Shown in pieces: positions 441 to 63,541 of a DNA stretch of 64,000 nucleotides. Source of the DNA: Enterobacteria phage vB_EcoM_IME341; sequence record MH051917. The stretch is one strand, 5' to 3'. The notes under the pieces are model-generated. The model saw only the letters and a list, made by a program, of their open reading frames with translations. It had not been told where the DNA came from and made no database searches. A program made the position numbers and the translations under genes. Each line of letters opens with the position of its first letter. Position 1 is the first letter of the stretch.

Positions 441-470
441 TGTTTACAAGTTAAAATTCTCATGTTACTA
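441..470 (+). promoter_or_regulatory. early sigma70-type promoter (GTTTAC -35, 17-bp spacer, TACTAT -10)
   Basis: GTTTACA 441-447; TACTAT 465-470; precedes ORF 500. Confidence 0.55.
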
Positions 471-499
471 TTGAATAGTCAAATCACAAGAGAATTGTT

Positions 500-712
500 A
501 TGGATAAGATTAAAGTACATTTTTTACATGAATCAGGTATGAATTTTATTGATATTGCTAAAAAGATTGGCGGAACTGCCAGAGATATGGCTAAAGCTTG
601 GGCCGAAGTTGAGAATGCTAAGGCCAAGTTTAAAGCAAGAGAGAAAGTCGTATATCGTAAAAGATTAAACAACAAAAAGGTCAGCGCAAAGCGCGTTTTT
701 GGTCCAAAGTAA
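500..712 (+). CDS. small basic protein, possible HTH
   Basis: ORF with upstream early promoter; basic C-terminus. Confidence 0.45.
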   Translation: MDKIKVHFLHESGMNFIDIAKKIGGTARDMAKAWAEVENAKAKFKAREKVVYRKRLNNKKVSAKRVFGPK

Positions 713-4840: not shown

Positions 4841-4880
4841 GTTTACAGCAAGGTTATCACATGTTACTATAGACCTATCA
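4841..4880 (+). promoter_or_regulatory. early promoter cassette (GTTTAC-17-TACTAT-AGACCTATCA)
   Basis: consensus cassette; precedes ORF 4900. Confidence 0.65.
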
Positions 4881-4899
4881 AAACATGAGGAGATTAAAA

Positions 4900-5166
4900 A
4901 TGAACAAGTTAAACTTTATTCGTACTACTCTTTCCGCTCTTGATAAAGACATCAAAGCCCTGGTAGAAAAATATGGTTCCAATCCTAACGGTAATGCAGT
5001 GAATGCACTAGTTAAGAAATACGAAGCCATGGCTTATGCTACCGACTTCTGGTGGAACGGTGAATACTCTACCCATACCAAAGACAAATCTGGTAACTGG
5101 CTGAAAATCCAAGAAAATCGTATTGACTTCCGTGATATCATCAACCGTCGTGTCAAAGCAGCGTAA
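4900..5166 (+). CDS. hypothetical protein, first gene of insert between gp24 and gp23
   Basis: ATG 4900 after GAGGAG; 88 aa. Confidence 0.5.
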   Translation: MNKLNFIRTTLSALDKDIKALVEKYGSNPNGNAVNALVKKYEAMAYATDFWWNGEYSTHTKDKSGNWLKIQENRIDFRDIINRRVKAA

Positions 5167-39194: not shown

Positions 39195-39206
39195 TTTAAA
39201 AAAGGT

Positions 39207-39246
39207 GTTTACAAGGTCTATAGGCATGATACTATAGACCTATCAA
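39207..39246 (+). promoter_or_regulatory. early promoter cassette with 10-bp inverted repeat flanking the -10
   Basis: GTTTAC 39207-12; TACTAT 39230-35; AGGTCTATAG 39214-23 pairs CTATAGACCT 39232-41. Confidence 0.7.
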
Positions 39247-39272
39247 AACAAACTAACCAAACGGAAATCAAA

Positions 39273-39497
39273 ATGAAAACTTATCAAGAATTTATTACCG
39301 AAGCTAAAAAACACGAAGACCAACTGCCGGTTGTTACAAAAACCTTTGACGGTTCATTGGCTGATTTTAAAAAAGTCCCTAGTGATAAGCTCGCTAAATT
39401 GACCGGGAGCATCGGCGAAAAAGACGGCAAGGTCACATTTTCTGCTCAAGGCACCGCTAATCTTAAAAAACTTTTGAAAGCCGCTGGCGCTGAATAA
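39273..39497 (+). CDS. internal-protein-like small protein with leader MKTYQEFITEAK
   Basis: capsid-targeting leader. Confidence 0.65.
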   Translation: MKTYQEFITEAKKHEDQLPVVTKTFDGSLADFKKVPSDKLAKLTGSIGEKDGKVTFSAQGTANLKKLLKAAGAE

Positions 39498-39499
39498 AA

Positions 39500-39772
39500 A
39501 TGAAAACATATCAAGAATTTATCGCTGAATCTATTCTTAATGAAGAAGTAAAAATTAACAAATCTGTTAAGACTATGATTGATAATATAAATCATCTCTA
39601 TAACATCGATTTGACTAATCATGTAACTTTAGGCAATAAGCGAAACTTTTTTGTATTTGATACTTCAGAACTCGACCAGAATCAAATTAACAATATTGAA
39701 CGTTTTGCTAATGAAAAAGGGCTGCGTCACGAAACGGCTGGTTATAAAAAGTATGCAATTTATTTAAAATAA
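39500..39772 (+). CDS. internal-protein-like small protein with leader MKTYQEFIAESI
   Basis: capsid-targeting leader. Confidence 0.65.
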   Translation: MKTYQEFIAESILNEEVKINKSVKTMIDNINHLYNIDLTNHVTLGNKRNFFVFDTSELDQNQINNIERFANEKGLRHETAGYKKYAIYLK

Positions 39773-39774
39773 TT

Positions 39775-39816
39775 GTTTACAACGGGCTCTAGTGATGGTA
39801 CTATAGCCCTATCAAA
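39775..39816 (+). promoter_or_regulatory. early promoter cassette with compensated inverted repeat
   Basis: GTTTAC 39775-80; TACTAT 39799-804; GGGCTCTAG vs CTATAGCCC. Confidence 0.65.
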
Positions 39817-39840
39817 ACAAATGAGTGATTGGAGAATAAA

Positions 39841-40026
39841 ATGAAACGTTGTGAATTAATTAGAAATGTTACTGCACTGGCAGCCGTTACTGCTTTTGGC
39901 TTTAGTATGTTTGCAGGATTCATGCTCGATATGCTTTCAACTTCCGAGAATATAATCTCTTTAGTAGTGGCATTTTTAATTGGTTCAATCTCTTTCGTAA
40001 TGGATAAAATCTCTAAAGGTGAATAA
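39841..40026 (+). CDS. small membrane protein
   Basis: ATG 39841 after GGAGA; two hydrophobic segments. Confidence 0.45.
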   Translation: MKRCELIRNVTALAAVTAFGFSMFAGFMLDMLSTSENIISLVVAFLIGSISFVMDKISKGE

Positions 40027-40712: not shown

Positions 40713-40815
40713 GAATTATGTGATATTATTACTCTATCATTAATACCCTCTATTACCAAAGGTTCTTCCCTCAAAGAATCTTTCATAATAGAATTAATCA
40801 ACTAATGAGGAAAAT

Positions 40816-41235
40816 ATGATTACTCCAATTCTTATCGATTTTAACAGCGAAACCTGGGAAAATCCAGAAATCGCTACAGAAGTATTTTATAACTGCCAAC
40901 CATCTGAAATTAACTATAATTGTTTTGACGGGAATTTAATCCGTATTTGGTTAAAATCTAAAGAACACTCGGCCCATATTGTGGCTACAGTCTGTGATGA
41001 CGAGTTATATGAAATGTGTTCCGGCGTAACAGAATTTGATGCCGATTTAATTGCTGGATGGTTATTCACTGTTTTATTTGAAGATGTTTGGTCACCAGGC
41101 GGTGAACAATTCTGTTTCAGCGAGTTTGGTAAAAAGTTAGGTGTTTTTTCTTCGGATGACACCAATTTTAATATTTCGCCTGATATTTGTGTACACTATG
41201 ATGGCCCTTCCGAAGGTTGGAATTGGTCTAGTTAA
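40816..41235 (+). CDS. hypothetical acidic protein
   Basis: 139-aa ORF with AGGAAAA RBS. Confidence 0.5.
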   Translation: MITPILIDFNSETWENPEIATEVFYNCQPSEINYNCFDGNLIRIWLKSKEHSAHIVATVCDDELYEMCSGVTEFDADLIAGWLFTVLFEDVWSPGGEQFCFSEFGKKLGVFSSDDTNFNISPDICVHYDGPSEGWNWSS

Positions 41236-41242
41236 GAATTAA

Positions 41243-41319
41243 GGCCCTGTAGCTCAATGGTTAGCAGCAGTCCCCTCATAAGGGAAAGGTTACCAGTTCA
41301 AATCTGGTCTGGGTCACCA
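41243..41319 (+). tRNA. tRNA with CAT anticodon (Met, or Ile2 if lysidine-modified)
   Basis: cloverleaf folded by hand: T-arm ACCAG-TTCAAAT-CTGGT, anticodon loop CTCATAA, 3' CCA encoded; one acceptor mismatch. Confidence 0.65.
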
Positions 41320-41387
41320 ACTTTGATTAGGTAGAGCAGTCAACTTCTCCATGAATAAATATCTATATAAAATTCATGGAGAAAATT

Positions 41388-42047
41388 ATGCTTTGCCAAT
41401 ATTGTTCTAAAGAATGTAAAAACTTAAATTCACTAAAGCAACATGAAAAACGGTGCAAATCTAACCCAAATGGATTAGATATGAGCGGCCCTAATAACCC
41501 TCGTTTCGGTCTTAAAGGTGTCAATCAATTTACAAAAGCCAAAGAACTAGGTAAAGAAATAAAGGTTTCTGATAAAACCAGAGAAAAACTTAGAAAAGCC
41601 AATACAGGATATGTATGGTCTAATGAACGCAAAGAAGCACATTCTAAAAGAATGCGGCAAGCTGTTCTTGATAATCCTGATTCATATTCTGCTTCTAATG
41701 TTTCTGGTCGAGTAAAAACATATGAGTTTGACGGATTTAAATTTAAAGGGACTTGGGAATTAAAAGTTGCTAAGTTTTTAAAAGAACACAATATCAAATA
41801 TACTAATGAAATAAAGCCAATTCCTTACGAATGGGAAGGTTCAGAACATCTCTATTTTCCTGATTTTTATTTACCCACTTATGATTTTTATATAGAAGTC
41901 AAAGGATATAAAAGAGATAGAGACCTTTGTAAATGGAAAGCTTTAGAAAATTTGATAGTTTTAGAAAAAGATGAGATTTCCGATTTGTCTTGTCTTTTAA
42001 ATAAATTACGTCCCGCTGGTGTAATGGATAGCATACGATCCTTCTAA
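41388..42047 (+). CDS. free-standing homing-endonuclease-like protein: CxxC...HxxxxC zinc finger, NUMOD-like linker, PD-(D/E)xK domain related to gp4
   Basis: ATG 41388 after GGAGA; C-terminal YFPDFYLPTYDFYIEVKG parallels gp4 YFMDF...FEVK; lies in tRNA cluster like T4 segB. Confidence 0.55.
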   Translation: MLCQYCSKECKNLNSLKQHEKRCKSNPNGLDMSGPNNPRFGLKGVNQFTKAKELGKEIKVSDKTREKLRKANTGYVWSNERKEAHSKRMRQAVLDNPDSYSASNVSGRVKTYEFDGFKFKGTWELKVAKFLKEHNIKYTNEIKPIPYEWEGSEHLYFPDFYLPTYDFYIEVKGYKRDRDLCKWKALENLIVLEKDEISDLSCLLNKLRPAGVMDSIRSF

Positions 42048-42084
42048 GTTTGCGGTCCTGGTTCGATCCCAGGGCGGGATACCA
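42010..42084 (+). tRNA. tRNA-Arg (TCT anticodon)
   Basis: acceptor GTCCCGC/GCGGGAT, T-arm CCTGG-TTCGATC-CCAGG, anticodon loop CTTCTAA, CCA encoded; overlaps 3' end of the preceding ORF. Confidence 0.7.
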
Positions 42085-42314
42085 AATGAAGACTATTATA
42101 TAGTCAAGCCGTCGTATGAAGACTGATTGCCAGCATTCACCGGCGCAACAAACAAGAAACCGGGTCGCTACCGGTAAGTCGTCGGACTGAAGTTCTCTGG
42201 AGTATAGTTCCTCCCACAGTTGTACTGTGTTCTGGTTCTTTACTATCACAGCTGAAACGGCGCACCGAACACTTGCCTAGCAGGTGGAACCCCGACAAGG
42301 TTGCCGCAAGGCAT
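42085..42314 (+). ncRNA. GC-rich non-coding segment downstream of tRNA-Arg; candidate stable RNA (cf. T4 species 1 and 2 RNAs)
   Basis: no ORF, GC clearly above the window background, ends at an intrinsic terminator; inference only. Confidence 0.3.
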
Positions 42315-42962: not shown

Positions 42963-42992
42963 AGGCCCTTCCGAAAGGTTGGGCCTTTTTTG
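42963..42992 (+). terminator. intrinsic terminator, direct repeat of 42315
   Basis: AGGCCCTTCC-GAAA-GGTTGGGCCT + T6. Confidence 0.7.
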
Positions 42993-43014: not shown

Positions 43015-43053
43015 GTTTACACCTCCTTTAAACATGATACTATAGACCTATCA
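43015..43053 (+). promoter_or_regulatory. early promoter cassette; spacer CCTCCTT complementary to downstream SD
   Basis: GTTTAC 43015-20; TACTAT 43038-43; SD AAGGAGA 43067-73. Confidence 0.65.
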
Positions 43054-43078
43054 AAACAACAGAGTGAAGGAGAGTAAA

Positions 43079-43342
43079 ATGGATAATTATGGTGAATTGT
43101 TTAATTTCTTTATGAAATGCGTTCCTGAAGAATTTGGTGCTACTGTTAACGATATTAAGGTTATAGGTGACGACCATCCTATATTTGAAACGTATGCAGT
43201 AATGGGTAATGATGATGGCCAGTGGTATACCGTAAAGGTTGTGGTTAATATGTTTGCCGCCGAAGGTTATGTTAAATTGTCTACCAAAGTTTATCATGAT
43301 AACGATTTTGATGCGGAAGAGTATTTCAATAATATGAAATAA
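43079..43342 (+). CDS. hypothetical protein
   Basis: ATG 43079 after AAGGAGAG. Confidence 0.5.
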   Translation: MDNYGELFNFFMKCVPEEFGATVNDIKVIGDDHPIFETYAVMGNDDGQWYTVKVVVNMFAAEGYVKLSTKVYHDNDFDAEEYFNNMK

Positions 43343-43344
43343 TT

Positions 43345-43381
43345 GTTTACATGGGCTCATGATTAAGATATTATGAGCCCA
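43345..43381 (+). promoter_or_regulatory. early promoter cassette with 9-bp inverted repeat across the -10
   Basis: GTTTAC 43345-50; TATTAT 43369-74; TGGGCTCAT 43352-60 vs ATGAGCCCA 43373-81. Confidence 0.65.
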
Positions 43382-43399
43382 TAATTTGAGGAGAACATA

Positions 43400-43798
43400 A
43401 TGAATATCGAAGATAAAGAAATGCAAGAGTTGTACAATTCATTAACGCCTGAACAACAAAAAGCTGCCAAAGAATTAGAGAAAGCTCTTACTTTCAACTT
43501 GGCAAAAACTGATTGGGCTGCCATGTATGAAGAAAAAACTAGATTAGAACTTGAAGCGGTCGAGAGAAATGAATGGATTGTCGAAACCAAGATTTCTGAT
43601 GGTGGTTGCTCTGTTGAGGTGTCAGCTGTAGTTAAAGGTACCCATGGCGAAAAATCATGGGGCTGGCATAATGAGACAAACAAATATATTGTTCTCTCAA
43701 CGTCAAAAACTTATGGCCAAAGGGCTCCTGTATCCAAAGCTATTATTAAGCAAGCTCAATGGGAAGCCAATGAAATCTGCCTCGCAAAAATGAAATAA
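43400..43798 (+). CDS. hypothetical protein
   Basis: 132-aa ORF after GAGGAG. Confidence 0.5.
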   Translation: MNIEDKEMQELYNSLTPEQQKAAKELEKALTFNLAKTDWAAMYEEKTRLELEAVERNEWIVETKISDGGCSVEVSAVVKGTHGEKSWGWHNETNKYIVLSTSKTYGQRAPVSKAIIKQAQWEANEICLAKMK

Positions 43799-43801
43799 AA
43801 T

Positions 43802-43838
43802 GTTTACATCCCTCAGAGGACAGGGTATAATGTCCTCA
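43802..43838 (+). promoter_or_regulatory. early promoter cassette with 7-bp inverted repeat across the -10
   Basis: GTTTAC 43802-07; TATAAT 43826-31; GAGGACA vs TGTCCTC. Confidence 0.65.
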
Positions 43839-43873
43839 TGGATTATAAATCTTAACCAACTGAAGGAAATACT

Positions 43874-44467
43874 ATGAACACTTTAAAGAAAATCGTTGAA
43901 TTCATCCGTTCTAAACTGGGTACTGCAATGGCTCAGAACCTGTCAATCGAAGACCAGTATACTAAAGCTGCTTCTACCCTGATTGATAAAATCACTGAAC
44001 TCCAGACTGCTCATGTTAAGTCTGTGAATGAAGAAAAACGTATTCGGGCGTTGGCTAATGAAAAAGACCAGCTTGCTGCTTCTAAAGAACGTGAAATTCG
44101 TAAACTGATTGCCGAAGGCGCTGATGTCCAGGTACATGCTAAACTCGGCCTCCTTTATCGTCGTACGGCTACTCAGCTTCGTAAGAAAGCCGATGATTAT
44201 ATCGAAATGCGTAATGAAATTAAACTGAAGGTCAAGGAACTTGATGACTCTCGTCAGGAACTGGCTGTTAAGCTCGAGTACATCCGTGAAACTCGTAATA
44301 TGGCTGCCCTTGGTATTGCTACTGCCGATGATGTTGTTGAAATCGCTGCACTGACTAAGATTGATATTGAAGATACCCTGCTGCGTGTAGAAACGTTTAA
44401 AGGCCCACAGGTTGGAATGGATACGACTTCTGCTGATATCGACGACTACATTAATTCACTTAAGTAA
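43874..44467 (+). CDS. coiled-coil protein, PspA/IM30-like by composition
   Basis: 197 aa, heptad-rich; similarity judged by eye only. Confidence 0.45.
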
Positions 44468-46888: not shown

Positions 46889-47218
46889 ATGCATAAAGAT
46901 TCAGTATTCAAATATCTTTTGAAAACAGATAAAGAATTCTATATGAATGGGCAAGCCTTCTTGTTCGTTCGTGGTAAACGTGAGATGTTTTACAAATGCG
47001 ACCTCTCAATGCACCATCATATGTATCACACCCATGGCGAGCCTATACTGGGGTTCTCTGGTGACGAAACTAGACGTATAGCTATGTACTACGACCATTT
47101 TAAGCTCAATGATTGTGGTGACAACGCTCTGGTCTGGAATCCATCTTGGCGTCGTTGGGATACGGTAGACAACGATAAATTATTTTTAGAATATTGCAGA
47201 AGTGATGTACAACTCTAA
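46889..47218 (+). CDS. hypothetical His-rich protein
   Basis: ATG 46889 after AGGAGGA. Confidence 0.45.
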   Translation: MHKDSVFKYLLKTDKEFYMNGQAFLFVRGKREMFYKCDLSMHHHMYHTHGEPILGFSGDETRRIAMYYDHFKLNDCGDNALVWNPSWRRWDTVDNDKLFLEYCRSDVQL

Positions 47219-47234
47219 AAATACGTGTTACTAT
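47207..47234 (+). promoter_or_regulatory. early promoter variant (TGTACA -35, TACTAT -10)
   Basis: leader ACACAAACATGAGGAGAAC shared with the denV leader. Confidence 0.45.
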
Positions 47235-47261
47235 TACCCTACACAAACATGAGGAGAACAT

Positions 47262-47501
47262 ATGTGGTATTACGCTCCGATGTCCGATAAGTCTAATGAA
47301 CCGGTACGCATTACTCGTGCCAAGTTTAAAAAGATTTATGGCTTTGCTTATAAGAAGTCTGATTACGGTGTTCGTTTTGAAGATGCTCACTGTATCAATG
47401 ACCCTTATGCAGAAGAAATTTCTAATGAGATAATTCCTATCGTTGAGAGTAATTCCAATGATATGTGGGAATTGCATAACACTTACGTTGCCGAAATTTA
47501 A
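47262..47501 (+). CDS. hypothetical protein
   Basis: 79-aa ORF after GAGGAG. Confidence 0.5.
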   Translation: MWYYAPMSDKSNEPVRITRAKFKKIYGFAYKKSDYGVRFEDAHCINDPYAEEISNEIIPIVESNSNDMWELHNTYVAEI

Positions 47502-48480: not shown

Positions 48481-48492
48481 TTGCATAAAATT

Positions 48493-48532
48493 GTTTACAA
48501 GGTCTATAGGCATGATACTATAGACCTATCAA
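48493..48532 (+). promoter_or_regulatory. early promoter cassette, 45-bp identical copy of 39207
   Basis: identical GTTTACAAGGTCTATAGGCATGATACTATAGACCTATCAAAACAA. Confidence 0.7.
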
Positions 48533-48558
48533 AACAACAGAGTGAAATGGAGAATAAA

Positions 48559-48771
48559 ATGAAACTTTCTAACCAAGCAATCAACATGTTAAACGAAGTT
48601 CGTGCAGCTGGTGCTAAATGCCTGATGGTTAACACTCGTGACGGTGACCTTCGTCAAGCATTCGGTGAATTGAAATCTGCTGACCTGGTTAAATGTTCAG
48701 TTGGTATCGGTAACGCACTTCGTGTATCCTTATCCCCTAAAGGTAAAATGTACTTTTTCAACAAAAAGTAA
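48559..48771 (+). CDS. hypothetical protein
   Basis: ATG 48559 after GGAGA; 70 aa. Confidence 0.5.
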   Translation: MKLSNQAINMLNEVRAAGAKCLMVNTRDGDLRQAFGELKSADLVKCSVGIGNALRVSLSPKGKMYFFNKK

Positions 48772-51550: not shown

Positions 51551-51580
51551 GTTTACTTTTACAATAGCTGTGATATAGTG
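51551..51580 (+). promoter_or_regulatory. early promoter (GTTTAC, 17 bp, TATAGT)
   Basis: upstream of denV. Confidence 0.5.
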
Positions 51581-51608
51581 TTCTCACACAAACATGGAGA
51601 ACACTAAA

Positions 51609-52025
51609 ATGACTCGTATTAACCTTACCTTAGTATCTGAATTGGCCGACCAACACTTAATGGCTGAATATCGCGAATTACCACGTGTTTTCGGTGCAGT
51701 TCGTAAGCATGTTGCTAATGGTAAACGTGTTCGTGATTTTAAAATTAGCTCTACTTTTATCCTTGGTACCGGCCATGTTACTTTCTTTTATGATAAGCTT
51801 GAATTTTTACGTAAACGTCAAATCGAGCTTATAGCCGAATGTTTAAAACGTGGTTTTAATATCAAGGACACTACGGTCCAAGACATTAGTGATATTCCTC
51901 AGGAATTCCGTGGTGACTATACTCCACACGAAGCTTCTATTGCTATATCTCAGGCCCGTTTGGACGAAAAAATTGCACAGCGTCCTACCTGGTACAAACA
52001 TTATGGCAAGGCTATTTACGCTTAA
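51609..52025 (+). CDS. denV: endonuclease V (pyrimidine-dimer DNA glycosylase)
   Basis: 138 aa, near-identical to recalled T4 DenV ([47 protein letters not shown]...). Confidence 0.95.
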
Positions 52026-52067
52026 TTAAATCCGTGATAGAATACTTCTATCAACTTAAGGAATAAT

Positions 52068-52367
52068 ATGAAAACTTATCAAGAATTTATTACAGAAGCC
52101 AAAGCTCCTAAAGCATTTCAAATTGGAGTTCAAGGCAATTTAGACCAAGAATATGTTGATGCTATTGTAGCAAGCCTCGGTAAACAGGGTGTACAAGTGG
52201 ATTTTGTTGATTTTACCAAAGGTAATACTTTTAATATTGTTACATCTAAAGGTTCTTTAGCTAAAGTTAAAAAGGCCTTTGGCGTAGCACAAGCATATGA
52301 AATCGACCACTCCGAATTGGAAAATAAAGGTCGCCAGAACACAATTAAAGGTTCTGGTTCTTTCTAA
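52068..52367 (+). CDS. internal-protein-like protein with leader MKTYQEFITEAK
   Basis: capsid-targeting leader. Confidence 0.65.
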   Translation: MKTYQEFITEAKAPKAFQIGVQGNLDQEYVDAIVASLGKQGVQVDFVDFTKGNTFNIVTSKGSLAKVKKAFGVAQAYEIDHSELENKGRQNTIKGSGSF

Positions 52368-54047: not shown

Positions 54048-54096
54048 GTTTACATCTCCTGTAGACATGATACTATAAACCTATCAACTACAGGAG
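54048..54096 (+). promoter_or_regulatory. early promoter cassette; spacer CTCCTGTAG pairs with SD-containing CTACAGGAG
   Basis: GTTTAC 54048-53; TACTAT 54071-76; arms 54056-64 and 54088-96. Confidence 0.7.
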
Positions 54097-54104
54097 ATTA
54101 CAAA

Positions 54105-54563
54105 ATGTCAGAAATTAATTCAGAAGTATTCATCCGCCGCAACAAATTACGTCGTCAGTTCGAAACCGAATTCCGTGAACTGAATGCGTCCATCAAAAAA
54201 GCCGCCATTAAGAGCGGTGTCCCAGCCTTCTTTATTAAGTACTCTAATCACTTGTTGGACCGTGCTATCCAACGTGAAATCGACGAAAAATACGTTTTTG
54301 CTTTATTCAAGCAACTCCATAACCATGTTAAAGAAATCCACGAATTCTTAATCCAGGAACCTCTGCCTGATGTAGAATCCGAAATTGTCCCTGGTAAAGT
54401 GTATCGTCCATTGCGTCTCGAAATTACCGATAAAACCTTATGGCTAGGTATGACAGTAGACCGTAAACATCCTGATAAAGGATATTCCCTTAAATGTCGT
54501 ATGGCATTTGTTAACTCTAAACGTTTAGAAGGTAAAACCAGCACTAAAGTAATCTATCTTTAA
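54105..54563 (+). CDS. hypothetical protein
   Basis: 152-aa ORF. Confidence 0.5.
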   Translation: MSEINSEVFIRRNKLRRQFETEFRELNASIKKAAIKSGVPAFFIKYSNHLLDRAIQREIDEKYVFALFKQLHNHVKEIHEFLIQEPLPDVESEIVPGKVYRPLRLEITDKTLWLGMTVDRKHPDKGYSLKCRMAFVNSKRLEGKTSTKVIYL

Positions 54564-57926: not shown

Positions 57927-57931
57927 TCAAA

Positions 57932-57957
57932 GGTCTCACTTCGGTGGGACCTTTTTT
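57932..57957 (+). terminator. intrinsic terminator
   Basis: GGTCTCAC-TTCG-GTGGGACC + T6. Confidence 0.75.
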
Positions 57958-57966
57958 CGTTTAGGT

Positions 57967-58016
57967 GTTTACATCCTCTAGGAACATGATACTATAGACC
58001 TATCAACTAATGAGGA
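57967..58016 (+). promoter_or_regulatory. early promoter cassette
   Basis: GTTTAC 57967-72; TACTAT 57990-95; spacer TCCTC vs SD GAGGA. Confidence 0.65.
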
Positions 58017-58023
58017 AAACAGT

Positions 58024-58260
58024 ATGAAACTTACAAGTACTACGGTTTCATTAGAATATGAAATCAACGGTCGTATCCTTGAGATTAAGATATTCGACGA
58101 CCGAAGTATCTTTGCCGATTATCGAGGATACAGAATTCGTCTGGAAAAGGACGAGCTCAAGGAACCGTGGCTCCTTAAAGACACATTAAAGGGTTGTGGG
58201 TGTAAACTGAAAACCACCCAAGCCCAAGAATTAATTTCTACTATCAACAAATACTGGTGA
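58024..58260 (+). CDS. hypothetical protein
   Basis: 78-aa ORF. Confidence 0.5.
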   Translation: MKLTSTTVSLEYEINGRILEIKIFDDRSIFADYRGYRIRLEKDELKEPWLLKDTLKGCGCKLKTTQAQELISTINKYW

Positions 58261-60990: not shown

Positions 60991-61186
60991 AGAAGAAATT
61001 AACGTCTTTCTATCGTATGGAAGACCTCATAAAACTCGACGTTGGTATCTTGAAGCCGTCTGTAAAGAAACCGGACGTCGAGTCAATATCAAGTACGCAT
61101 GCAAACCTACGCCTAAACAGACAAGACGATTTGTTAACTGGGCTATAAATGATATCCGCTTCTATAATTTTTGGAGCGCAATTTAG
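60947..61186 (+). CDS. possible small basic protein; start uncertain
   Basis: ORF overlaps the 3' end of the preceding gene by 44 nt, no internal ATG. Confidence 0.25.
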   Translation: MKRCTLTTTTLITAKEEINVFLSYGRPHKTRRWYLEAVCKETGRRVNIKYACKPTPKQTRRFVNWAINDIRFYNFWSAI

Positions 61187-61207
61187 GAACCTTCGGGTTC
61201 CTTTTTT
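61186..61207 (+). terminator. intrinsic terminator
   Basis: GGAACC-TTCG-GGTTCC + T6. Confidence 0.75.
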
Positions 61208-61226: not shown

Positions 61227-61266
61227 GTTTACAACCTCGTAGAGCATGATACTATAGACCTATCAA
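61227..61266 (+). promoter_or_regulatory. early promoter cassette
   Basis: GTTTAC 61227-32; TACTAT 61250-55; TAGACCTATCAA. Confidence 0.65.
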
Positions 61267-61303
61267 ATAAATGAACTGAAACAACTTAAAACGGAGATAC
61301 AAA

Positions 61304-61558
61304 ATGAATATTAAAGCACCTTTCGCCGGTAATGTTATTCGTGAAGATTCAATCGAAATCAACGGTGTGGTAGTTAAAGCGGTTTTAACTGATATCAAAA
61401 CCCTGGTTAAAGTTGATTACTTAACCTTTAATTTCGAAAACATTGAAGGTTATATTAATTTCCCACCAAGCATTAAAATGCATGTACGCCATGAAACTTG
61501 GTCTAAAGCAGATCAGCAAAAAGCAGTAGATTTTATTATTGAGTTCTTCTCAAAATAA
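61304..61558 (+). CDS. hypothetical protein
   Basis: 84-aa ORF. Confidence 0.5.
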   Translation: MNIKAPFAGNVIREDSIEINGVVVKAVLTDIKTLVKVDYLTFNFENIEGYINFPPSIKMHVRHETWSKADQQKAVDFIIEFFSK

Positions 61559-61560
61559 GT

Positions 61561-61600
61561 GTGTACATATGCTTTAAACGTGTTATTATAGACCTATCAA
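61561..61600 (+). promoter_or_regulatory. early promoter variant (GTGTACA -35, TATTAT -10, TAGACCTATCAA)
   Basis: cassette variant upstream of the ATPase gene. Confidence 0.5.
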
Positions 61601-61626
61601 ATCTACTGAGTGAAATGGAGAATATA

Positions 61627-62607
61627 ATGTTAACTATCAAAATCAACAAAGGTATCTATCGCGGTAATGAAATCTCTGGTACGTTCATGAGTTCAGGTAA
61701 AACCTGGTTCCCTAATAAAATTCATGAATCCGAAGCTCACCTCGGTGATGGCAAGGTATTCGTACAGATTGATGGTGTTGAACGTGGTGTATGGGTGTTC
61801 AAATGTGACGTTGAAATGGAAGGTGCTGAAGCTCCTGTAGTGGTTACTGAATCCGCTGAAGAAATGAAACATCGCATCAACAAACGTTTTAAAGTAATGA
61901 ACATGATGACTAACGGAATCATCGATGGTAAAATTCGTTCCCTTATCATCTCTGGTGCCGCAGGTATTGGTAAAACGTATTCTTTGGATAAAGCATTACA
62001 GAATGCCCATGAAAATGAAACTATCGAATATAAATCAATCAACGGAAAGATTAGTGGAATCGGTCTTTACGAGCAGCTTTGGAATAACCGCGGCCCTAAT
62101 AGTGTTCTTCTTATCGATGATGTTGATGTATTCTCTGATATGGATATCCTGAACCTGTTAAAAGCAGCATTGGATACCGGTGAAAAACGTAAGGTGTGCT
62201 GGAGCACTTCAAGTTCTTACCTCGATGATAAAAATATCGATAAAGAATTCGAATACGAAGGCACCATCGTGTTCATCACCAACGTTGATATTGACCGTGA
62301 ATTAGAACGTGGAACTAAACTTGCTCCACACCTCCAGGCTTTAGTATCTCGTTCAGTTTACTTAGACCTCGGAGTTCACTCTAACGAAGAGATTATGGTT
62401 CGTGTTGAAGACGTTATCCTGTCCACTGATATGATGCAAAACCGAGGTCTGTCTGATGCTGAGACCTATCAAGCTTTAGCATGGATGAAGGCTAATGTAT
62501 CTCGTCTTCGTAACGTATCATTACGTACAGCTCTTTATCTAGCGGACTTCATTGCCACCGATAAAAATGACTGGAACGAAATCGCTGAAGTTACCCTTCT
62601 GAAATAA
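61627..62607 (+). CDS. P-loop ATPase (Walker A GAAGIGKT, Walker B LLIDDVD) with distinct N-terminal domain
   Basis: ATG 61627 after GGAGAATATA; motifs read from translation. Confidence 0.6.
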   Translation: MLTIKINKGIYRGNEISGTFMSSGKTWFPNKIHESEAHLGDGKVFVQIDGVERGVWVFKCDVEMEGAEAPVVVTESAEEMKHRINKRFKVMNMMTNGIIDGKIRSLIISGAAGIGKTYSLDKALQNAHENETIEYKSINGKISGIGLYEQLWNNRGPNSVLLIDDVDVFSDMDILNLLKAALDTGEKRKVCWSTSSSYLDDKNIDKEFEYEGTIVFITNVDIDRELERGTKLAPHLQALVSRSVYLDLGVHSNEEIMVRVEDVILSTDMMQNRGLSDAETYQALAWMKANVSRLRNVSLRTALYLADFIATDKNDWNEIAEVTLLK

Positions 62608-62961: not shown

Positions 62962-63010
62962 GTTTACATCTCCAGTAGAAATGATACTATAGACCTATCA
63001 ACTACTGGAG
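62962..63010 (+). promoter_or_regulatory. early promoter cassette; spacer CTCCAGTAG pairs with SD-containing CTACTGGAG
   Basis: GTTTAC 62962-67; TACTAT 62985-90; arms 62970-78 and 63002-10. Confidence 0.7.
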
Positions 63011-63016
63011 GTTATC

Positions 63017-63541
63017 ATGAACGCTAAAGATATTTTTTCACTGATTAATTTCAACAACGGTAATTTCAAATCTGAAAAACAAAGCAAGTTCTTTAACGAC
63101 GTTGCTTGTGGTAATGAGATTACCGTATCTGGAGGAGAGATTTACAAAAGCCGTTGGAACTGGATTGCTATCATCGATTCAGTTGGTATTGTAGAGCTCT
63201 ATAAAAACACTAACAAAAAACGTATTCTTTACTGGAGTCGTGAAAACAATCAAGCTTATCAAGCTGAACGTAACAAACGTTTAATGCCTACTGAATCTGA
63301 CCTGGCAAACGTTAAATCTGATATCGCTTATTTCGATAATCTGATTGCCGAACAACAAGCAGTTATTGATAAGTTTGACGAAATCAAAGCTTGTAAAGAG
63401 ATTCCTGAATTCATGCGGGAATCAGTAAACGAACAGTACGCCCTCACTTCAGGTCGTATCGAGCAGTACAAATCACAACGAGCTGAACGCCAAGCTCTGC
63501 TTCAGAAATTTGAAGAGCGTTTAAAGACGGTTCTCGCATAA
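63017..63541 (+). CDS. hypothetical coiled-coil protein
   Basis: 174-aa ORF after GGAGG. Confidence 0.5.
   Translation: MNAKDIFSLINFNNGNFKSEKQSKFFNDVACGNEITVSGGEIYKSRWNWIAIIDSVGIVELYKNTNKKRILYWSRENNQAYQAERNKRLMPTESDLANVKSDIAYFDNLIAEQQAVIDKFDEIKACKEIPEFMRESVNEQYALTSGRIEQYKSQRAERQALLQKFEERLKTVLA

Follow-up and report, generated by a model that had tools for sequence, protein, structure and literature searches.

The 64,000-nucleotide stretch of Enterobacteria phage vB_EcoM_IME341 analysed here (MH051917; "the window" below, with coordinates counted from its first letter) carries a repeated early promoter of the T4 type in its variable early regions, and these copies very probably form a family of composite cassettes of the promoter-early-stem-loop (PeSL) type in a Dhakavirus-type phage, with roles both as RNA hairpins and in recombination. 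The copies share a phage-specific motif, many of them carry non-random stems whose arms covary between relatives, and two related phages hold chimeric junctions between neighbouring copies. In about half of the hairpins the partner of the promoter spacer is the Shine–Dalgarno (SD) sequence of the downstream gene and not the discriminator, a feature overlooked in the preliminary description of this DNA, and such hairpins would act at the RNA level.

A repeated early-promoter cassette

Searching the window for GTTTAC-N17/18-TAYWRT gave 13 exact matches, all on the + strand (442, 4841, 39207, 39775, 43015, 43345, 43802, 48493, 51551, 54048, 57967, 61227 and 62962), compared with a mean of 0.34 and a maximum of 3 in dinucleotide-preserving shuffles. 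The total rises to 14–16 cassettes with 61561 (GTGTAC), 52014 (ATTTAC-N18-TAGAAT) and the weak copy 47212 (ATGTAC-N18-TACTAT). A scan with the generic sigma-70 consensus led to 65 matches versus 57.1 in shuffles, i.e. no enrichment, and the phage-specific motif alone was informative. Alignment of the copies gave the consensus AAAAAGnT-GTTTAC-A.C..CTATA.ACATGA-TACTAT-AGACCTATCAA, in which an AT-rich UP-like region is followed by the GTTTAC −35, a spacer of 17–18 bp, a TGn extended −10 (TACTAT/TATAAT), a discriminator and start region AGACCT-ATCAA, a short leader, the SD and the ATG. An SD-like sequence and an ATG were found 19–54 nt past the −10 in every copy, and GGAG is present in 11 of the 16 cassette SDs. 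The downstream box TAGACCTATCAA is exact in eight copies on the + strand (4870, 39235, 43043, 48521, 57995, 61255, 61589 and 62990), has one mismatch in two further cassettes (39804 and 54076) and is absent at 442, 43345, 43802, 47212 and 51551. Cassettes of T4, Dhakavirus and Gaprivervirus, whatever their hairpin type, repeatedly carry ..CTATCAA(C/A).. at the discriminator and start and ATCAACTAC(T)GAGGAG as leader, a conservation that extends beyond the sigma-70 contacts.

The preliminary description had counted at least 15 copies and listed 15 as sharing four motifs. The family itself and nearly all of the listed copies hold, but the sharing is not universal, as the copy placed at 47207 is only the weak variant near 47212, 61561 reads GTGTAC and TAGACCTATCAA is absent from five; in addition, 52014 had been missed. 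The identity that it reported between 39207–39251 and 48493–48537 was found again and spans 46 bp (39206–39251 and 48492–48537), and many other pairs of cassettes share 36–41 of 45 positions. In IMG/VR, an exact 17-mer, TACTATAGACCTATCAA, occurs 11–14 times per Dhakavirus genome versus about once in T4-like contigs.

All cassettes are confined to 0.4–4.9 kb and 39.2–63.0 kb, and none lies among the structural genes on the − strand at about 5.9–35.5 kb. Between 38 and 64 kb the window is 92–98% identical to the Dhakavirus T4-like coliphages IME08, C6, JS10, JS98 and AnYang and collinear with the T4 segment 57B - tRNA - e.8/e.6 - e - ip - denV - vs - regB - tk - rI - mobD - nrdC.11/10/8, with all genes of this early segment on the + strand. 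The genes downstream of the cassettes are orthologues of the T4 early genes regB, denV, e.6, e.8, trna.4, ip genes, nrdC.8 and nrdC.10.

Hairpin layouts and covariation of their arms

A significant stem was detected in 10 of about 15 window copies, straddling the −10 in five and reaching the SD in about five, and upstream terminators, likewise missing from the preliminary description, were found at three copies. Three layouts can be distinguished. In layout A (39207 and its equivalent 48493, 39775, 43345 and 43802) the spacer arm pairs with the discriminator just past the −10. The loop contains or adjoins the −10, and no part of the hairpin extends past the predicted start. In layout B an anti-SD arm in the spacer pairs with the SD of the downstream gene, as in copies 54048 (regB), 62962 (nrdC.8), 51551 (denV) and 442 and, more weakly, in 43015 and 57967. 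Layout C has no internal stem or a weaker one, and a canonical intrinsic terminator is located directly upstream (43015, 57967 and 61227); two of the three terminators (42964–42985, 57929–57954 and 61186–61201) carry C(UUCG)G tetraloops. That these terminators adjoin cassettes without a strong internal hairpin suggests that upstream terminator and internal hairpin are alternative solutions. The inverted repeats quoted in the preliminary description are all present, with AGGTCTATAG/CTATAGACCT at 39207 and again at 48500/48518, GGGCTCTAGT/ACTATAGCCC with one mismatch at 39775, the 13-bp stem at 43345 and GAGGACA/TGTCCTC at 43802 (Table 1). Promoters in the syntenic region of T4 show the same layouts as the window cassettes, with layout B at denV, regB and nrdC.8 and layout A at ipI, ipII, ipIII and trna.4, and the T4 denV cassette, which contains an identical TACTATAGACCTATCAACTACAGGAGA, is almost identical to the Dhakavirus box version. 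Rfam covariance models at the gathering threshold detected only two tRNAs between 38000 and 64000 and no family for the hairpins.

For the duplex test, each spacer was paired with the downstream segment of every cassette, and cognate and non-cognate energies were compared. In the window, cognate duplexes had a mean of −11.3 kcal/mol versus −7.6 kcal/mol for non-cognate ones, and none of 20000 permutations reached the cognate mean. The syntenic early regions of the window, T4, five Dhakavirus and two Gaprivervirus genomes (nine in all) contributed 75 distinct cassettes, of which 46 showed a duplex of −8 kcal/mol or better together with a spacer-shuffle p ≤ 0.05, with about 4 expected by chance; the 3' arm abuts the −10 in 24 of these duplexes and overlaps the SD in the other 22.

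Covariation was followed in two sets of orthologues. The e.6 stem reads GAGGACA/TGTCCTC in the window, IME08, JS98 and JS10, GAGGGCA/TGCCCTC in ESCO10 (Escherichia phage vB_EcoM_ESCO10, OM386655.1), GGGAACA/TGTTCCC in Gaprivervirus and GAGAGCA/TGCTCTC in further IMG/VR contigs. In the alignment of nine e.6 sequences, 100% of cells were paired and three of seven pairs had changed on both sides; none of 500 shuffles reached the observed percentage of paired cells, the number of both-sided cells or the covariation score, 167 of 500 reached the observed count of pairs with both-sided change, and slid controls gave 37–56% paired. For regB, 43 loci led to 32 distinct upstream variants, 21 of which were used in the duplex test; as the MAFFT alignment split the SDs across columns, anchored and duplex-energy analyses were used instead. 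Cognate regB duplexes averaged −16.1 kcal/mol versus −10.8 kcal/mol for non-cognate ones, and again no permutation out of 20000 came down to the cognate mean. The orthologues carry anti-SD/SD stems that differ from lineage to lineage and reach up to 17 bp, such as CTCCTGTAG/CTACAGGAG, TTTCTCCTCTTTATG/CATAAAGAGGAGAAA, ATCTCCTTTTAGT.GTGT/ACAC.ACTAAAAGGAGAT, ATCCTCATTTG/CAAATGAGGAT and TTCTCCTCTAGTTG/CAACTAGAGGAGAA, with TTCCTCTTgACTG/CAGTtAAGAGGAG in T4. Stem positions 5, 7, 8 and 9, outside the CTCC:GGAG core, show several Watson–Crick pair types, and inspection of the variants revealed spacer–SD pairing with differing flanks in most of them. The both-sided changes at e.6 and the lineage-specific regB stems support the compensatory change, and hence selection on a hairpin, proposed in the preliminary description, which had suggested a covariance analysis across copies and related genomes; the arms do covary. 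Judged comparatively, the predicted anti-SD hairpins of early promoters are well supported.

Recombination at cassettes and their neighbourhood

When the window was compared with seven relatives, 66 distinct homology boundaries were obtained, and 20 of them lie within cassettes, whose intervals make up 5% of the region (p = 4e-11), an enrichment partly confounded by the intergenic position of both indel ends and promoters. Two ORFs, an ORFan of 84 aa (61304–61558) and the e.8 orthologue (43079–43342), are each flanked by two cassettes and each missing from a close relative. IME08, without the 84-aa ORF, has a single chimeric cassette that agrees with 61227 in terminator, −35 and spacer and with 61561 in −10, box and leader. 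In JS10, which is without e.8, the single cassette agrees with 43015 as far as the SD, after which comes the gene following 43345. These crossovers between close relatives are located inside the cassette, in shared −10/box or SD segments and not at the bases of the stems. For JS98, which lacks 39296–39765, no clear chimeric junction was seen. Differing cassettes precede orthologous genes in different phages at denV, e.6, the gene after e.8 and nrdC.10. The near identity of cassettes over 36–46 bp would provide sites of homologous recombination for gain, loss and swap of single ORFs, and the role as recombination sites already proposed in the preliminary description gains from the breakpoint enrichment and the junctions of IME08 and JS10.

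The cassettes and adjoining terminators are listed in Table 1. The genes starting at 39273 and 52068 begin alike (MKTYQEFI...).

Table 1. Early-promoter cassettes and adjoining intrinsic terminators of the window
Feature	Coordinates	Strand	Remarks
Early-promoter cassette, no TAGACCTATCAA box	442..502	+	Layout B; AATTCTC 455–461 pairs with GAGAATT 490–496, overlapping the SD; ATG 500
Cassette with box	4841..4902	+	Weak 6-bp CATGTT/AACATG stem beside the SD; ATG 4900
Cassette upstream of ip-like gene (MKTYQEFI...)	39207..39275	+	Layout A; 10-bp hairpin 39214–39223/39232–39241; −10 mostly in loop or 3' arm; ATG 39273
trna.4-orthologue cassette	39775..39843	+	Layout A; hairpin 39784–39793/39800–39809, one mismatch; ATG 39841
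Intrinsic terminator GGCCCTTCCGAAAGGTTGGGCC, then T-run	42964..42985	+	Layout C; directly 5' of cassette 43015
e.8-orthologue cassette	43015..43081	+	Moderate layout B; CTCCTT 43023–43028 pairs with SD AAGGAG 43067–43072; ATG 43079
Cassette, −10 TATTAT, no box	43345..43402	+	Layout A; 13-bp hairpin 43351–43363/43370–43382; ATG 43400
e.6 cassette, −10 TATAAT	43802..43876	+	Layout A; 7-bp hairpin 43816–43822/43831–43837; ATG 43874
Weak or degenerate copy, doubtful member	47212..47264	+	ATGTAC-N18-TACTAT; no GTTTAC, no box; ATG 47262
Cassette, 46 bp identical to 39207	48493..48561	+	Layout A; hairpin 48500–48509/48518–48527; ATG 48559
denV cassette, −10 TATAGT	51551..51611	+	Layout B; GTGTTCTC 51578–51585 (overlaps end of −10) pairs with GAGAACAC 51597–51604 covering the SD; ATG 51609
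Extra cassette, ATTTAC-N18-TAGAAT	52014..52070	+	Upstream of ip-like gene MKTYQEFI...; no convincing hairpin; ATG 52068
regB cassette	54048..54107	+	Layout B; 11-bp stem ATCTCCTGTAG 54054–54064/CTACAGGAGAT 54088–54098 enclosing −10, predicted start and SD; ATG 54105
Intrinsic terminator, C(UUCG)G tetraloop and T-run	57929..57954	+	Layout C; 12 nt upstream of cassette 57967
Cassette with box	57967..58026	+	Weak spacer/SD complementarity (−8.9 kcal/mol); whole cassette absent from IME08; ATG 58024
Intrinsic terminator GGAACCTTCGGGTTCC, then T-run	61186..61201	+	Layout C; upstream of cassette 61227
Cassette with box, no internal hairpin	61227..61306	+	Precedes 84-aa ORFan 61304–61558, with the next cassette on its far side
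nrdC.10 cassette, GTGTAC, −10 TATTAT, box	61561..61629	+	ATG 61627
nrdC.8 cassette	62962..63019	+	Layout B; 11-bp stem ATCTCCAGTAG 62968–62978/CTACTGGAGGT 63002–63012, one U.G pair; ATG 63017

Two further observations concern the surroundings of the cassettes. In the ESCO10 record, product names are shifted or wrong in this region, with the regB, denV and tk orthologues called baseplate, DNA ligase or tail fibre proteins, and the record is unfit as a source of gene names. A segment of the window at 40793–42148 has no counterpart among the seven relatives compared; it contains an ORF of 139 aa without Pfam match (40816–41235), a tRNA-Met (41243–41319) and an ORF of 223 aa (41376–42047) with a sub-threshold Pfam match to Phage_endo_I (E 2.6e-5), which overlaps the start of a tRNA-Arg (42010–42084). 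Between these two tRNAs, JS10, IME08 and JS98 have a tRNA-Asn and others none. By analogy with the homing endonuclease segB in the tRNA cluster of T4, the segment may be a mobile nuclease insertion.

Known systems, proposed mechanism and rival explanations

PeSLs were described in RB49/phi1 (Arbiol et al., 2010, PMC2839356) as an early promoter with a stem-loop, often between −35 and −10 or over the −10, and with SD and ATG behind it; such elements cluster in hyperplastic regions and bring about ORF indels and mini-circles. JS98 is mentioned there for PeSL-like sequences near gene 43, and the elements at the IP locus of T-even phages (Repoila et al., 1994) are called analogues that use T4 early promoters. 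The name was later extended to T4/PST (TTTACW-N17-TAYWAT) and nt-1/KVP40 in an analysis that included no Dhakavirus phages (Comeau et al., 2014, PMC4122927). The resemblance to PeSLs suggested in the preliminary description extends to every defining feature that can be read from sequence, i.e. a repeated composite of AT-rich region (AAAAAG upstream), early sigma-70 promoter with TGn extended −10 fitting TTTACW-N17-TAYWAT, stem-loop often at −35/−10 or over the −10, SD and ATG, situated in hyperplastic early regions, in front of small ORFs, and not in late structural modules, with indel crossovers between −10 and SD. RB49/phi1 PeSLs differ in their TTGACA/TATAAT consensus and polyG/polyC stems, whereas the window has GTTTAC, mostly TACTAT and AT-richer variable stems; moreover, it is for RB49/phi1 that terminator activity and mini-circles were shown experimentally. 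Closer in promoter type (TTTACW-N17-TAYWAT), in their ip, e, nrdC and tRNA neighbourhood and in ORF swaps are the PeSLs of T4/PST and nt-1/KVP40 and, as cited by Arbiol et al. (2010), the IP-locus elements. The T-even stem-loops are placed "just upstream of the promoter" (PMC4122927), which matches the terminator-plus-promoter copies 43015, 57967 and 61227, whereas most stems of the window and of T4 straddle the −10 or reach the SD. The T4 early promoter class (Hinton, 2010, PMC2988021; Nolan et al., 2006, PMC1524935) shares the GTTTAC −35, the A-rich −40s, the TGn extended −10 and extra conserved positions, but the Dhakavirus copies are more stereotyped. PeSL-type cassettes are general in T-even-type phages including T4 and not special to phages of the RB49/phi1 type.

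For layout B, the closest parallel is found in T4 e, soc, 49 and I-TevI, which have SD-masking hairpins with an internal promoter (Uzan and Miller, 2010, PMC3014915). Common to both is that the inhibitory helix has its 5' strand upstream of the start of the internal promoter, with read-through RNA masked and internal transcripts translatable in T4; a helix over SD or AUG whose 5' strand precedes the predicted internal start was found at 54048, 62962, 51551 and 442 and in part at 43015. The T4 internal promoters are late and lead to late-only translation, whereas the internal promoter of the window cassettes is of the early sigma-70 type, with the spacer as 5' arm, and not the late (gp55) promoter TATAAATA. 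As the internal promoter is early, layout B is analogous to the T4 cases but not of the same class, and the predicted effect would be translation only from the gene's own immediate-early transcripts. SD masking is not discussed in the PeSL papers, the T4 reviews of 2010 give only late-promoter cases and a further literature search found nothing, with an earlier description possible in the older T4/regB literature.

In the mechanism we propose, the cassettes would be read as T4-type early promoters by host sigma-70 RNA polymerase right after infection, and the spacer, under little sequence constraint from sigma-70, would double as the 5' arm of a hairpin. Because this arm precedes the cassette's own predicted start, the hairpin would form only in RNA reading through from upstream. 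In layout A it would mark the end of the upstream message and may act as a 3'-end barrier or attenuator, and its place in layout C would be taken by a separate terminator of the canonical kind, immediately upstream of the promoter. In layout B, by analogy with T4 e, soc, 49 and I-TevI, the read-through RNA would be translationally masked, whereas RNA from the cassette's own promoter would have a free ribosome-binding site. The predicted probability of an unpaired SD in read-through versus own transcript was 0.00 versus 0.30 for regB (54048), 0.00 versus 0.24 for nrdC.8 (62962), 0.02 versus 0.46 for denV (51551), 0.01 versus 0.59 for cassette 442 and 0.37 versus 0.83 for e.8 (43015), whereas in layout A copies it differed by at most 0.16, in either direction. 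As 11 of the 16 SDs contain the RegB target GGAG, layout B pairing would probably also shield read-through RNA from RegB. Somewhat short of an even chance, and thus tentatively, we suggest that in T-even-type phages including T4 many early-promoter spacers encode an anti-SD, such that regB, denV, nrdC.8 and other genes downstream of them would be translated only from their own immediate-early mRNA, with the read-through message silent and RegB-shielded ("promoter-of-origin" control). Internal non-Watson–Crick pairs also point to the RNA, as 12 G.T but only 2 A.C pairs (p = 0.013) were found in 91 strong stems from 192 distinct cassettes, counts drawn from related and therefore non-independent sequences; this G.T excess, which a symmetric DNA cruciform would not predict, supports pairing of the sense strand without being decisive.

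The stem-loops might instead be only terminators or attenuators of upstream transcripts, as proposed and partly shown for RB49/phi1 PeSLs, with an incidental overlap of the SD. The stem-loop of PeSL211/210 lowered lacZ expression about as much as rrnB T1 (PMC2839356), true terminators lie directly upstream of three window cassettes, and an intergenic location suits hairpins at the end of the upstream cistron. However, −10-straddling and SD-pairing stems are without U-tract and went undetected in the terminator scan, the loops of 23–30 nt in layout B are unlike those of terminators, and a strong predicted change in SD accessibility is restricted to layout B. The regB stems are always SD-anchored with covarying flanks, which would be unexpected if termination alone mattered, and we consider this explanation a real but doubtful possibility. 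Canonical terminators were rejected as an assignment for the internal stems, which have no U-tract.

It is rather unlikely that layout B hairpins mainly protect the intercistronic GGAG SDs of long read-through mRNAs from RegB, leaving downstream cistrons intact, instead of blocking translation. RegB cuts GGAG in early SDs, its own included (PMC3014915), GGAG is frequent in the cassette SDs and the best conserved layout B stem is that of regB itself, but one and the same pairing leads to shielding as well as to translational masking, and the two are compatible.

An action of the inverted repeats as DNA, either as cruciform or hairpin targets of endonuclease VII or another DNA-binding protein driving mobility, or as operators for early-promoter shut-off, appears improbable. 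It would fit the crossovers within cassettes, the conservation of the box TAGACCTATCAA beyond known sigma-70 contacts and a shut-off of T4 early promoters whose mechanism is stated as unknown. However, the crossovers lie away from the stem bases, as in plain homologous recombination, stems of 7–13 bp with loops of 23–30 nt in layout B make cruciform extrusion unlikely, and the G.T excess indicates pairing of one strand. Arm sequences vary from one cassette to the next, with covariation of the two arms, which speaks against recognition by a sequence-specific protein, and a protein-operator palindrome was rejected on this ground. Finally, that the likeness of the copies and the palindromes stem from a single promoter, recently duplicated or spread by gene conversion, and from chance complementarity between CT-rich spacers and GGAG, without structural selection, is highly improbable and largely refuted by the covariation of orthologues: two copies are indeed identical over 46 bp, many pairs share 36–41 of 45 positions and many spacers start A-T-C-(C/T)-(C/T)-C whatever their partner, with a basal CTCC:GGAG pairing reflected in the non-cognate regB mean, but cognate pairing was better in every permutation, far more of the 75 cassettes than expected carry a significant duplex, and orthologous promoters of T4, Dhakavirus, Gaprivervirus and other lineages have, at one and the same position, stems of unrelated sequence with both-sided changes. 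Chance palindromes were rejected by the permutation tests.

Several points weigh against cassettes with RNA-level hairpins and a role in recombination. About a third of the cassettes (4841, 52014, 61227, 61561 and 47212) are without a convincing hairpin, which is therefore not obligatory. No U-tract follows any of the −10-straddling hairpins, and the terminator scan flags only the separate hairpin at 57929; these are thus not canonical intrinsic terminators, and the role of layout A is the weakest step of the explanation. A clear anti-SD stem is missing in 5 of 21 regB variants (L030, L040 from Gaprivervirus and L063, with weak stems in L036 and L056), which show layout A or nested stems instead. 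The asymmetry of folding energy between sense and antisense over the whole region is weak (33 versus 23, p = 0.076), and to this are added the relatedness of the sequences behind the G.T and A.C counts and the confounding of the breakpoint enrichment. Promoter activity and the start site, assumed to be 7 nt past the −10 at the A of CCT-ATCAA, are predicted from the consensus, sigma-70 rules and T4.

The PeSL-type cassette is an already known kind of element and as a family ordinary for T4-like phages, and the copies described here are a new addition that extends the catalogue to the JS98/IME08 (Dhakavirus) group, together with two clean examples of gain or loss of a single ORF through recombination between cassettes. 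For annotation, the cassettes mark true gene starts and module boundaries. While the interest of the cassette family is modest, it is higher, at least for specialists, for the conserved anti-SD hairpins embedded in early promoters, as the hairpins are heterogeneous and about half of them pair the spacer with the following gene's ribosome-binding site. From the sequences compared, this pairing is kept by compensatory change in T4, Dhakavirus and several other T4-like lineages and absent in some, e.g. at the Gaprivervirus regB promoter. The layout B prediction is open to direct test in T4 at regB, denV and nrdC.8; if true, the packed early genes of these phages would be insulated from read-through at the level of translation and not of transcription.

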